From an uncultured Bacillota bacterium (GTDB taxonomy: Bacteria; Bacillota; Clostridia; Acetivibrionales; DTU013), in contig OW818679.1 in assembly GCA_942493145.1 (NCBI GenBank), positions 1,103,566 through 1,167,565 of the forward strand: a stretch of DNA of 64,000 bases, read 5' to 3'. This document shows, piece after piece, positions 7,251 through 53,439 of the stretch. Under the pieces are notes generated by a model. That model saw only the letters and a list, made by a program, of their open reading frames with translations. It did not search any database and was not told where the DNA came from. Position numbers and translations under genes: made by a program. How positions within the stretch are numbered: the stretch's first letter is position 1; every line of letters begins with the position of its first letter.

Positions 7251-7427
7251 TTAACTCTTATAACTGTGCAACTTAACTGAGCAACTTAACTGAGCAACTT
7301 AACTGAGCAACTTAACTGAGCAACTTAACTGAGCAACTTAACTGAGCAACTTAACTGAGCAACTTAACTGAGCAACTTAACTGTGCAGCTTAACTGAGCA
7401 GCTGAATTGCGTGCGCAGCTTAATTTA
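7251..7427. repeat. 13-bp tandem repeat array, unit CTTAACTGAGCAA
   Basis: Eight perfect head-to-tail units at 7272-7375. Degenerate units flank them on both sides (TATAACTGTGCAA, CTTAACTGTGCAG, CTTAACTGAGCAG, CTTAATTTAGCGG). Confidence 0.95.
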
Positions 7428-7653
7428 GCGGGCATGGCTGCAGGCTGGCTGAATGTTTGCGAACAGCTGCAGGCTGTTATGCTGATCCGAAGTCGTAATG
7501 GGGCACCAGGAACATAATGCCGAGCCATGGATGGCGAGGCCGCTGGTCTGGAGGAACGGATTCCGACTGACCTGCGCCCCCATTATGACGAGGATGAAGC
7601 ATTACAGCCTGCCTGTGAGCAAACCTGAAGCCCAAGCCTGCAGCCATGCCCGC
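7428..7653 (+). ncRNA. Candidate structured element, unclassified (copy A of a two-copy family)
   Basis: 18-bp perfect closing stem 7428-7445/7636-7653, with the arms paired almost end to end. The apex has unpaired CAGGAACATAAT followed by two small hairpins. It is homologous to 29353..29581 on the opposite strand, with compensatory changes. Strand is assigned by analogy to copy B, which lies sense-downstream of the transposase. Confidence 0.5.
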
Positions 7654-7657
7654 ACCT

Positions 7658-29198: not shown

Positions 29199-29235
29199 AG
29201 CCGGATTGTATAAGGGGTTAAACCCTTGTTCAATC
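29199..29235 (+). terminator. 5' half of the clpE-like terminator, split by the IS insertion (3' half at 30909-30918)
   Basis: Removing 29236-30908 restores AGCCGGATTG...CAATCCGGCT followed by TTTTTTATT. Confidence 0.7.
29228..29235. repeat. Target-site duplication, left copy (GTTCAATC)
   Basis: An identical 8-mer directly flanks the other IS end at 30901-30908. Confidence 0.85.
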
Positions 29236-29293
29236 GGCTCTACGTCAATAGTTGGGGTGGGGCACAAGTAAAATAAAATATTGATATATTTTC

Positions 29294-29334
29294 CCGGCGG
29301 ATGACCAAAATGATATTGGTTATCTGCCGGTTTT
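29294..29334 (+). terminator. Subterminal hairpin plus T-run inside the IS end, oriented to stop transcription entering from the flank
   Basis: CCGGCGGATGACC / GGTTATCTGCCGG (two G.U pairs on the + strand), followed by TTTTGG. Confidence 0.45.
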
Positions 29335-29352
29335 GGTTTGTAAAGGCGTTAT

Positions 29353-29581
29353 GCAGGTGGGTCAAGCAGGTACCAGCATCAGGCTCCGTCACAGACAGGC
29401 TGTAGGAAGAAAAGGCTCGCTGCAATGCGGGCGCCGGTGAAACGGCGTCCATGCCTATGCACCGGCGGCTGTGCCATCGTGGCACACCTTTATGTTCCTT
29501 GAGCCGCATTCCAGCTTCTCCATACTTCACAGCCTGTAACCGTTCCTCCGCATTCTGCTATATACTGCTTAACCCACCTGC
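29353..29581 (-). ncRNA. Candidate structured element, unclassified (copy B, IS-borne)
   Basis: Closing stem 29353-29367/29567-29581 (14 of 15 pairs). Inner stems 29395-29403/29529-29537 and 29419-29430/29504-29515. Apical hairpins 29433-29466 and 29471-29485. Conserved unpaired motif at 29489-29501. It lies directly after the transposase stop codon on the same strand. Confidence 0.5.
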
Positions 29582-29587
29582 TTTTTA

Positions 29588-30763
29588 TCAAGACATAACA
29601 TGCAGTATGCGATTCCGGAATCTCTTGAAATTCCTTACACCAAAAGCATTTCGCTTAATTACCTTGATCTTGTTGTTCACCCCTTCAGTGTAACCATTGG
29701 AGAAAGGGTGTTCAAATGAGTTGAGGATTTCATCGCTCCAGTTCATAAAAGTTCTTGTACATGCTTGAAATTCAGGCAAATTGTAACCAGTGGCCATCAT
29801 GTTCCAAACTCCTAATTGCTTCTTTGCATCATCTCGGCGTTTACACTCCATAAGCTTATGGAATTCATTCTTCATACGGTAGGCCTGCCTTAATCGGTCA
29901 GAGACATTAAGCATGGCTTCAACCTGGGCAACTTCGTCTTCAGTGAGATTTTCTGGCTTTTTCAAAAGCAGCTTCCTACTGCGTTTGAAATACTTCCTTC
30001 GGGCATCATGGAACCTCGACTGTTCATCTTTCCTGACATTTTCAAAAGCCCAGATGACCTGCCGTACGACATGATACCTGTCCGCAATTATCTTTGCATG
30101 TGGGAACAGGCTTTTTGCAAGGCTCCGATAAGGTCCGCTCATATCGATGACGACATACTGGACCTTTTTCCGATCCTTGTACTTAAGAAAATATCCGCTC
30201 AAGTCCTCTGTTCTTCTGTTGGGAAGGATATCCAACACCTTCTTGTGTTCAGGATCTGTAACAATACATTGGAACTTTTCTCCACCGGCATTTCCCCGGA
30301 ATTCATCCAGTGAAAGTACCCTTGGCAAATCCTTGTTTGAATATCCTACATGATCAAAGATTCTAGCTGCTGTAGGTTGAGATATGTTAGAAACGGCTGC
30401 AACACTTTTCATTGAACGAACCTCTTTCAATGAGCTGATTACATGGGCTGCAAGGCGACTTGTCATTCGATGATACCTTGGAAGGAACGATACTTCTTCA
30501 AAAAAACGTTTCCCGCATAAGGGGCAAACATGACGCCGCTTTGTAAGATATATGACTGTGGTATCACCAAATGCCGATATGTCCTTTATCGGCTGCGTCC
30601 TATAGTCGTGAACCTTGCTTGTCCTTTCTCCACACCTGGGACATTTGTGAATTCGCTGATACATACCCACATGAATACACAACTTATTGTCATTCCTTAC
30701 AACGGATTTTAGAAAAACATCTTTCAAACCTAACAATTCTTCCGTATAATTAGTGTAGAGCAT
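29588..30763 (-). CDS. ISL3 family transposase
   Basis: N-terminal zinc ribbon (CPRCG...CPLCG), HTH, then the DDE domain (..SLDEFRGNAGGEKFQCIVTDPEHKKVLDILPNRR.., ..VVIDMSGPYRS.., ..SNGYTEGVNNKIKVIKRNAFG). Confidence 0.95.
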   Translation of the reverse strand: MLYTNYTEELLGLKDVFLKSVVRNDNKLCIHVGMYQRIHKCPRCGERTSKVHDYRTQPIKDISAFGDTTVIYLTKRRHVCPLCGKRFFEEVSFLPRYHRMTSRLAAHVISSLKEVRSMKSVAAVSNISQPTAARIFDHVGYSNKDLPRVLSLDEFRGNAGGEKFQCIVTDPEHKKVLDILPNRRTEDLSGYFLKYKDRKKVQYVVIDMSGPYRSLAKSLFPHAKIIADRYHVVRQVIWAFENVRKDEQSRFHDARRKYFKRSRKLLLKKPENLTEDEVAQVEAMLNVSDRLRQAYRMKNEFHKLMECKRRDDAKKQLGVWNMMATGYNLPEFQACTRTFMNWSDEILNSFEHPFSNGYTEGVNNKIKVIKRNAFGVRNFKRFRNRILHVMS

Positions 30764-30900
30764 AGATTGAATTTCCTTTCAAATGGTGTGTCGCAACTTC
30801 ATTTTACTTGATAATTCAACTCTATGCTCTTTCTTTATGCAAAAAAATGCTGGAGCAGTTAAATTATTAATCTAACCACCCCAACATTTATTATAGAACC

Positions 30901-30908
30901 GTTCAATC
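30901..30908. repeat. Target-site duplication, right copy (GTTCAATC)
   Basis: Matches 29228-29235. Confidence 0.85.
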
Positions 30909-41178: not shown

Positions 41179-41282
41179 ATTGAGCAAGAAAAGAAATAGG
41201 GTAATGCAGCGATTAAATCAGGTAATACGGTGAATAAAAAGAAGCCGGATAATGGATGCCGGATGACGGAAGGACGATGAAT

Positions 41283-42104
41283 ATGAGCGAATTGATAAGG
41301 GGATTGACGCCCGAGGAGGCGAAGCTGCCTTATGCCAAATATTACTACAGGCCAATAGCACCACCGAATCCAAAACTGATTGAGATACTGAAACAGGGGC
41401 CTATGGATCCTGCGAAGGCACTGAAGCCCGAAAACATAAACGACTTGCTGAATCCAGGTTATCATGAAGTAGAGACCGGCTATTGCATTATGCCGGATGG
41501 AACAGGATATGCGGCTATCAACAACGTGTTCCCCGGATCTACCGTTGAAATGCACAACTGGTGGTTTGCCTGGCATGCGCTTGAAGACATCAGATACATG
41601 CTCTGGTTCAATAAGGGGCATTTTGGCATCCGTATCAGCGATGCCGACAGGGCGAAGATACTTGACCCCGATGTACCAATGGTAAAGAAGTACCAGGGTA
41701 TGCAGCATCATGTAGTAGAAGATGTGGGTGGTGGAGTGGAGGACATAGAAATCAATTTCCTGACACCGGAGGAAATGGGCTTTGATATGGAACGGTTCAA
41801 AGCCCCGGCTGTCGCAACTATAGTCGGAGCCAACGGATTTTCCCAGGCAAGGGCTGGAGGCCCAAAAGCCCCTGCAATAATGCTGCATTTCGCCCGTGAG
41901 ATTCCCGGCGGTATCGAATTCCGCACACGCTTCTGGATGGGCTGGCATATGATCAACGGAAAGCCGGTCAAACTGCTTCCGGACGGAATCAGGATACCAA
42001 TTCAGGCACCCATGGGCCTGGCCTTCCATAATGTGGAGGAGTACAGCAACCTGGCAGCATTTCTCCCTGAAATCTACAAGGAGATGCAGGGCAAGGTGTC
42101 GTAA
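41283..42104 (+). CDS. DAPG/phloretin hydrolase family (PhlG-like) C-C bond hydrolase
   Basis: Recognised from the family-like pattern ..YYRPIAPPNP.., VETGYCIMPDGTGY, WWFAWHALEDIRYMLW, and the C-terminal HNVEE (HxxxE). Recalled, not searched. Start is 41283 (GGAAGGA 8 nt upstream) or 41256. Confidence 0.6.
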   Translation: MSELIRGLTPEEAKLPYAKYYYRPIAPPNPKLIEILKQGPMDPAKALKPENINDLLNPGYHEVETGYCIMPDGTGYAAINNVFPGSTVEMHNWWFAWHALEDIRYMLWFNKGHFGIRISDADRAKILDPDVPMVKKYQGMQHHVVEDVGGGVEDIEINFLTPEEMGFDMERFKAPAVATIVGANGFSQARAGGPKAPAIMLHFAREIPGGIEFRTRFWMGWHMINGKPVKLLPDGIRIPIQAPMGLAFHNVEEYSNLAAFLPEIYKEMQGKVS

Positions 42105-42117
42105 TTCAAAGTATATT

Positions 42118-42209
42118 GGCTCTACGTCAACAGTTGGGGTGGGGTACAAGTAAAAAAATATAGATGTATTTTCGGTGGATGATTTTATTGATCATCCACC
42201 GTTTATTTT
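42118..42209 (+). repeat. Solo ISL3 end: terminal inverted repeat plus subterminal terminator hairpin, with no IS body
   Basis: GGCTCTACGTCAACAGTTGGGGTGGGGTACAAGTAAAA matches 29236-29273 with 2 mismatches over the first 38 nt. It is followed by CGGTGGATGAT / ATCATCCACCG and TTTATTTT. No transposase or second IR follows. Confidence 0.8.
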
Positions 42210-53259: not shown

Positions 53260-53284
53260 ATAGTATATATATCAATATTCAATC

Positions 53285-53318
53285 AAATGCGGGCGCTGGA
53301 TAATCAGCGCCCGCATTT
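53285..53318 (+). terminator. Strong hairpin after hydA-2
   Basis: AAATGCGGGCGCTG / CAGCGCCCGCATTT 14-bp stem with no clear T-run. Confidence 0.5.
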
Positions 53319-53439
53319 GAACTTCCGGTGACAGACAGGAATTCATGAACTGCATGTAAAATTTTCGATGTTTGTATTCTCAATATTTATTTTCAGTGAT
53401 AAAATCCTATTATGTCGGGAAAAAGACGGGGTGTGACTA

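Follow-up and report, generated by a model that had tools for sequence, protein, structure and literature searches.

A structured RNA module lies directly downstream of the transposase gene in one clade of ISL3-family insertion sequences (ISs), and the comparisons reported here show that its fold has been selected, inherited and transposed together with the element. The window that we analyzed, a stretch of 64,000 nucleotides from an uncultured Bacillota bacterium, holds one complete IS of this clade with the module on board (copy B) and a second, stand-alone copy of the module (copy A). We lean, with modest confidence, toward the view that the module is inherited as accessory cargo and is not a transposition cofactor; most likely, it is an RNA in the 3′ untranslated region (3′UTR) that binds a protein. 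What is new is the finding of an orphan RNA motif in a mobile ISL3 context, which we regard as real and well supported; both the kind of RNA and the kind of IS were already known.

The features are listed below with their positions in the window.

7426 to 7657, plus strand: module copy A, stand-alone, between convergent ThrE_2 and LysM/CAP genes
29228 to 29235: left copy of the target site duplication (TSD), GTTCAATC, 8 bp, perfect
29236 to 30900, minus strand: complete ISL3-family IS, 1665 bp, defined by its inverted repeats, TSD, the restored terminator and the transposase families
29236 to 29260: right terminal inverted repeat (IRR), 25 nt, reading GGCTCTACGTCAATAGTTGGGGTGG
29294 to 29330, plus strand: inward-facing terminator hairpin adjoining IRR
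29353 to 29581, minus strand: module copy B, 229 nt, TwoAYGGAY-like structured RNA, identified by its fold, Rfam, model R1 (222 bits) and covariation
29434 to 29465, minus strand: hairpin 2 of copy B, loop AUGGAC
29467 to 29488, minus strand: hairpin 1 of copy B, degenerate loop ACGAU in place of AYGGAY (1-nt deletion)
29494 to 29499, minus strand: AGGAAC, unpaired motif just upstream of the hairpins, invariant in 16 of 16 copies
29588 to 30763, minus strand: ISL3 transposase gene, 391 amino acids, the span including the stop codon at 29588 to 29590
30876 to 30900: left terminal inverted repeat (IRL), 25 nt, reverse complement of GGTTCTATAATAAATGTTGGGGTGG
30901 to 30908: right copy of the TSD, GTTCAATC, 8 bp, perfect

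The ISL3 element and its insertion sites

The transposase matches Pfam DDE_Tnp_ISL3 (251.6 bits), together with Zn_ribbon_ISL3 and HTH_Tnp_ISL3, and it scores 349 bits against NCBIfam transpos_ISL3, for which the cutoff is 180. Along with this DDE/Zn-ribbon/HTH architecture, the element has the terminal inverted repeats (IRs) of an ISL3 member, here an imperfect pair of 25 nt each, and an 8-bp TSD. TSDs of the same length were found in relatives of the window IS (TATTTTTT and TAAAAAAC). Joining the flanks without the IS yields a hairpin of −30.2 kcal/mol that is followed by a U-run (z = −7.4). The original prediction of a 1665-bp IS with a perfect 8-bp duplication and a restored host terminator was confirmed on all three points, and so was the placement of copy B 6 nt after the transposase stop codon (the gap is 29582 to 29587) and about 115 nt short of the IR, the distance to the IS end at 29236 being 117 nt. 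A blastn search of the window IS against plasmids gave no match, and a viral pattern scan returned 0 matches.

Hairpins beside IRR are common to module-bearing and module-less relatives and are kept in all family members. At the other end of the window IS, an inward-facing terminator-like hairpin (30845 to 30889, minus strand) overlaps IRL. The clade inserts in or beside Rho-independent terminators, as seen for the window IS and for the related loci L002, L004 and L041 (TSDs GATTGAAC, which lies within a terminator stem, TATTTTTT and TAAAAAAC), and the inward hairpins at the two IS ends (29294 to 29330, plus; 30889 to 30845, minus) may serve as a replacement for the disrupted terminator. Elsewhere in the window, a solo ISL3 right end at 42118 to 42182 consists of an IR and an inward terminator hairpin and is 87% identical to 29236 to 29304. 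It lies directly after the stop codon of the open reading frame at 41256 to 42104, has neither transposase gene nor module and is probably a leftover of another IS copy.

Fold and family of the module

On the transposase strand, copy B folds with −121.9 kcal/mol (z = −7.3), whereas the opposite strand folds less well (−102 kcal/mol; z = −4.9). A first alignment of nine copies, made by MAFFT with no model used, yielded 59 consensus pairs; 91.3% of the cells were paired, and 39 pairs had changes on both sides. The second alignment was model based and covered 16 copies; here, 93.8% of the cells were paired, and compensatory changes were present in 41 of the 59 pairs. None of 500 column shuffles reached the observed covariation values, and sliding the 3′ partners by 1 to 3 columns as a control reduced pairing to 30 to 41% of the cells. 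When the IS-borne copies were considered alone, 95% of the cells were paired, and 24 of the 59 pairs showed compensatory changes. The outer helix of the module, at 11 to 22 bp, also covaries; together with two inner helices, it surrounds the adjacent hairpins 1 and 2. The proposed presence of a conserved, covarying RNA-type fold sense-downstream of the transposase is therefore borne out by both alignments.

The conserved motifs of the module, namely, AGGAAC, the AYGGAYG loops and an internal loop of hairpin 2 (YUGAG/GAAUN, a tandem GA), are strand asymmetric. G-U pairs outnumber A-C pairs by 19 to 8, or by 15 to 3 when the poorly aligned L064 is left out. Together, the asymmetric unpaired motifs and the excess of G-U over A-C pairs favor an RNA made from the transposase strand over a DNA palindrome. 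Each module has three GGA motifs, one in AGGAAC and one in each of the two loops, with the loop GGAs approximately 29 to 30 nt apart. Loop 1 is canonical in 14 of the 16 copies, the exceptions being copy B of the window (ACGAU) and L071 (AAGGAU); loop 2 is canonical in 10 and reads A-GGAU in the remaining six. The same two exceptions lack the tandem-GA loop found in most other copies, copy B having CAUAG/GUUUC at this position. Since copy B has lost a G from loop 1 and its tandem-GA loop is altered, the window copy may be partly decayed or impaired.

Two further observations concern sequences close to the fold. In L003, the module contains an extra 89-nt insertion (1470 to 1558) directly after hairpin 2, perhaps in the form of an additional hairpin or of a nested element; model R1 still gives this module 220 bits. 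In the window, positions 53283 to 53320 form a perfect 16-bp inverted repeat (TCAAATGCGGGCGCTG / CAGCGCCCGCATTTGA), the core of which, GCGGGCGC, has a weak likeness to the inner helix of the module (model R1, 9 bits; E of ∼1). This repeat is most likely an ordinary terminator.

In a local scan, copy B matched the Rfam family TwoAYGGAY (RF01731) with 33.6 bits (E = 0.0014), a likeness that is visible in local scans only and did not appear in the whole-window E-value scan. The same two hairpins gave 34.9 bits in L003, 32.2 bits in L005 and 29.7 bits in L004. The Rfam gathering score for this family is 43 bits, which no module copy reaches; at the gathering threshold, the whole window gave no match, and copy A did not match TwoAYGGAY at E < 1. 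TwoAYGGAY was described by Weinberg et al. in 2010 from Clostridia and from gut and anaerobic metagenomes, with no assigned function, as a pair of AYGGAY hairpins with a tandem-GA loop and a P1 stem that is often very long (PMC2864571). The module shares these hallmarks, having two adjacent AYGGAY-loop hairpins, a tandem GA in the second hairpin and a long enclosing P1. It differs from the family in its subthreshold scores of about 30 to 35 bits and in the lack of a match for copy A, and the subgroup described here has AGGAAC, a CAGGCUGU/ACAGCCUG helix and an AAUGCGG/CCGCAUU helix in addition. Because subthreshold matches coincide with shared hallmarks, we treat the module as a divergent TwoAYGGAY subgroup and not as a formal member by the Rfam threshold. 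The fold had at first been taken to be undescribed, a view that we abandon given this subthreshold relative.

Within the part of the published TwoAYGGAY alignment that we considered, one hairpin, CUGAGGCA.GGAUGCC.GAA, has the form of hairpin 2 of the module, and the A-GGAU loop variant also occurs (PMC2864571). The published description and the alignment rows examined mention no transposase link, and none of those rows has an annotated stop codon within ∼70 nt upstream (PMC2864571). Most known lineages of the present subgroup, on the other hand, reside within an ISL3 element. The Psychromonas ingrahamii copies of the published set have a long 3′ flank in common (PMC2864571, supplementary file 99), which suggests for the rows considered that in this species, too, the motif belongs to a longer repeat. 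Our literature search returned no paper joining ISL3 to TwoAYGGAY or to any structured 3′ module.

Carriage, sibling elements and stand-alone copies

A scan of the genome collection with the window transposase as the query returned 61 loci, among which the module follows the stop codon directly solely in L003, L004, L005 and L041. A metagenome scan with a module-only pattern, independent of the transposase, gave seven loci. Five of these are directly downstream of an ISL3 transposase 77 to 79% identical to that of the window (L062/63 and L065/66/67), and the other two stand alone (L064 and L068). Transposase-cluster look-ups added L071 (the closest relative, at 85% identity), L101 and cluster P0142, whose carriers are found in eight places (L092 to L099). 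IS copies within one genome were counted in the related MAG GCA_050953835.1, where four intact P0142 copies (L092 to L095) occupy different loci; the decayed copy L041 brings the module-bearing copies in this MAG to five. The module thus occupies the same position, starting 2 to 10 nt past the transposase stop codon, in 10 IS lineages (the window IS, L071, L003, L004, L005, L041, L062/63, L065 to L067, L092 to L099 and L101), all of which belong to one transposase clade (clade I; ≥72% identity, 200 of 200 bootstraps).

One module-bearing IS of 1642 bp occurs in identical form with three different flanks (L065, L066 and L067), which shows that the IS transposes with the module on board. The proposal that the module is inside the IS and moves with it is accordingly upheld, both by these flanks and by the four intact copies and one decayed copy in a single MAG. 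In broad outline, the tree of the modules agrees with that of the transposases, and this agreement, together with the compensatory changes in the IS-borne copies, indicates that the structure is under selection while it travels in the IS.

According to the original prediction, sibling ISs with identical ends but no module would mark the module as a nested, unrelated repeat, and siblings without it exist. One of them, L002, is complete at 1463 bp; it shares the IRL of the window IS, has an almost identical IRR, is flanked by a TSD of its own (TATTTTTT, 8 bp) and lacks the module. The sibling lineages of this kind number four (L002, L006, P0130 and P0138), and two of them are prolific: P0130 is present on 13 contigs, some of IS length (1454 to 1465 bp) and one at ∼490-fold coverage, and P0138 is listed in 48 index blocks. 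The module is clearly accessory and dispensable for transposition, as siblings without it still transpose. In the transposase tree, the module-less lineages are nested among the module-bearing ones, and monophyly of the latter was recovered in 2 of 200 bootstraps, which makes a single ancestral gain with one or more later losses the simplest history. Module remnants were sought in the spacers of L002 and L006, where local alignment scores were no better than those of shuffles; the loss is therefore read from the tree only.

In other relatives as well, the interval that separates the transposase stop codon from the terminator hairpin holds variable cargo. L001 has an IS256-like element there (∼1320 to 1800), and L009 (1310 to 1445) has an unrelated insert of 130 nt after the stop codon.

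The module could have been co-opted to regulate the transposase, stabilize its mRNA or aid transposition and be kept because it benefits the IS. Such an IS-specific role would agree with the constant position 2 to 10 nt past the stop codon, with the presence of the module in all five copies of one MAG and with the compensatory substitutions that preserve the fold in IS-borne copies while the transposases diverged by 15 to 28%. We nevertheless consider it rather unlikely, as the four module-less sibling lineages are intact, multicopy and found at many sites, the module is complementary to the IS ends only to the degree expected by chance and the window copy has damaged motifs. Stand-alone copies with the same fold, moreover, point to a function that is independent of the IS context.

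There are three stand-alone copies (copy A, L064 and L068), with no transposase within the sequence examined. Copy A is ∼60% identical to copy B (nhmmer, E = 1e-13), scores 212 bits with model R1 and folds with −142.8 kcal/mol (z = −12); its loops, AUGGAU and ACGGAU, are both canonical. Homology of the stand-alone to the IS-borne copies ends at the module edge, and no ISL3 IR-like sequence (≤9 mismatches in 27) was found within several hundred nucleotides of any of the three. The loci orthologous to that of copy A, L069 and L070, are syntenic with it (gyrB, LysM/CAP, ThrE_2 and ThrE; LysM/CAP is 83 to 85% identical) and lack the module; their convergent genes are 34 to 41 nt apart, with a small terminator hairpin between them. 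Directly 5′ of copy A, at 7261 to 7400, lies a 13-nt tandem array (TAACTGAGCAACT, 10.8 copies, 96% matches), the last degenerate units of which reach to ∼25 nt from the module and which is also missing from L069 and L070. Since copy A and the array are both missing from the orthologous loci, they represent an insertion or replacement specific to this lineage. Scans for promoters and terminators in the surroundings of copy A gave no matches.

Copy A and L064 fall outside the IS-borne copies in the module tree. L068, whose surroundings contain no IS sequence, has the IS-borne copy of L004 as its sister, at 77% identity. The topology fits a single capture of a free-standing RNA by the IS, after which the module would have passed between IS and chromosome at least once. 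The suggestion that copy A is an old remnant of the window IS did not hold up, given the absence of IS ends, the outside branching and the orthologous loci without the module. A second observation that had been named in advance as counting against a link with the IS, namely, that the module is found mostly away from ISL3, was made in part: the module does occur without an ISL3 transposase in three places.

The stand-alone copies also raise the possibility of a selfish hitchhiker, a small, non-autonomous MITE-like unit mobilized in trans by the ISL3 transposase, as has been proposed for ssr9/MITEPpu9 and ISPpu9. Orphan and IS-linked copies exist side by side, comparison with L069 and L070 shows copy A to be a lineage-specific insertion, L068 is close to an IS-borne copy and ISPpu9 provides a precedent (PMC12288879). 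A unit of this type should be flanked by the ends of its parent IS, however, and no stand-alone copy is surrounded by ISL3 IR-like sequence or has recognizable TSDs; the outer stem covaries without conservation of its sequence, unlike ends that a transposase recognizes. These features make a MITE-like origin quite improbable.

We find it similarly hard to credit that the module acts at the DNA or transcription level, as a bidirectional terminator, an insulator or a cruciform, and not as a specific RNA. The location of copy A, at the site of the small terminator hairpin that its relatives have between convergent genes, would suit such a palindrome, as would the habit of the IS clade of inserting beside terminators and carrying inward-facing ones. 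The strand-asymmetric unpaired motifs and the surplus of G-U over A-C pairs argue against it, no U-tract follows the stem and the terminator scan found no terminator spanning or ending the module. A plain terminator, furthermore, would need no pair of conserved inner hairpins. A guide-RNA model was rejected because the module matches the 45-nt IS ends over 6 nt at most, a length that shuffles reach as well.

Proposed function and significance

For the reading that we prefer, in which the module is accessory cargo with a protein-binding role, the following course of events may be envisaged. An ancestor of one ISL3 clade would have acquired the RNA in the variable slot that separates its transposase stop codon from the IRR-side terminator hairpin. 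The module would thereafter have been inherited as part of the IS and lost from some siblings, with the same RNA remaining free-standing elsewhere. A separate promoter would not fit into the 6 nt between the stop codon and the module; judging from this spacing only, the module is presumably cotranscribed with the transposase gene and forms the 3′UTR of the transcript.

TwoAYGGAY is listed in Rfam clan CL00106, which we take to be the Csr/Rsm clan. The module has the layout of a CsrA/Rsm-type target, with several GGAs in loops and single strands at a spacing that a CsrA dimer could bridge. The three GGA sites, ∼30 nt apart, might thus bind a dimeric, GGA-recognizing protein of the CsrA type, and/or the very stable long stem might shield the 3′ end of the mRNA from degradation. 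Either route would tie the transposase transcript, or a host regulator, to the bound protein, and a role of the module in the fate of the transposase mRNA is possible. Resemblance to CsrA sites and CsrA binding have previously been suggested for TwoAYGGAY from its GGA loops (PMC4333381). The module resembles the CsrB/RsmZ-type small RNAs (sRNAs) that act as CsrA sponges in having several GGAs in hairpin loops and single-stranded spacers; it differs in having only three sites per RNA, all of them predicted, and in being located in a 3′UTR or an intergenic region in Clostridia. Within the 64-kb window, tblastn found no csrA gene. In the window copy, the transposase SD lies in the loop of a CsrA-style hairpin; relatives do not share this hairpin, which was dropped as a candidate, and we found no conserved partner site for the module in the transposase leader. 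A stronger version of the proposal, namely, that a TwoAYGGAY-type RNA is a true regulatory part of the ISL3 clade that sets the rate or timing of transposition, for example, by binding the transposase or a global host regulator in cis, would be attractive, although we think it improbable.

At the level of the whole system, the closest analogue is ISPpu9 with Ssr9, which likewise combines an optional downstream RNA with orphan copies and no requirement for transposition. ISPpu9 belongs to the IS110 family, and some of its copies have an Ssr9 sRNA module downstream of the transposase, with orphans elsewhere; the module is unnecessary for transposition (PMC12288879). There, copies of the IS end boxes lie on both sides of ssr9, which gives rise to minicircles of its own, and Ssr9 is complementary to an antisense RNA of the IS (PMC12288879). 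The ISL3 module, in contrast, has no IS ends around it, and we found no antisense partner; the transposase is of the DEDD type in ISPpu9 and of the DDE type in ISL3. The bridge RNA of IS110 and the omega-RNA (HEARO) of IS200/IS605 are also structured RNAs inside an IS beside a transposase or nuclease gene. These RNAs are obligatory and have guide segments that match the IS ends or the target, whereas the ISL3 module is optional, has no such complementarity and accompanies a DDE transposase with protein-recognized IRs. With no complementarity to the ends and with the module missing from four sibling lineages, the element does not qualify as an RNA-guided IS.

TwoAYGGAY has been without a known function or genetic context since 2010, and a subgroup of it can now be placed in an active ISL3 clade. 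This adds a DDE-family member to the short list of RNA-carrying ISs (IS110, IS605 and ISPpu9-Ssr9) and indicates that RNA modules of ISs can be optional cargo and not cofactors. Carriage by ISL3 elements is also a route by which a structured noncoding RNA could spread between genomes, and the natural pairs of sibling ISs with and without the module offer an experimental handle. If the regulatory reading is true, the module would provide the first functional context for this orphan RNA motif, and the element would be the first RNA-regulated member of the ISL3 family.
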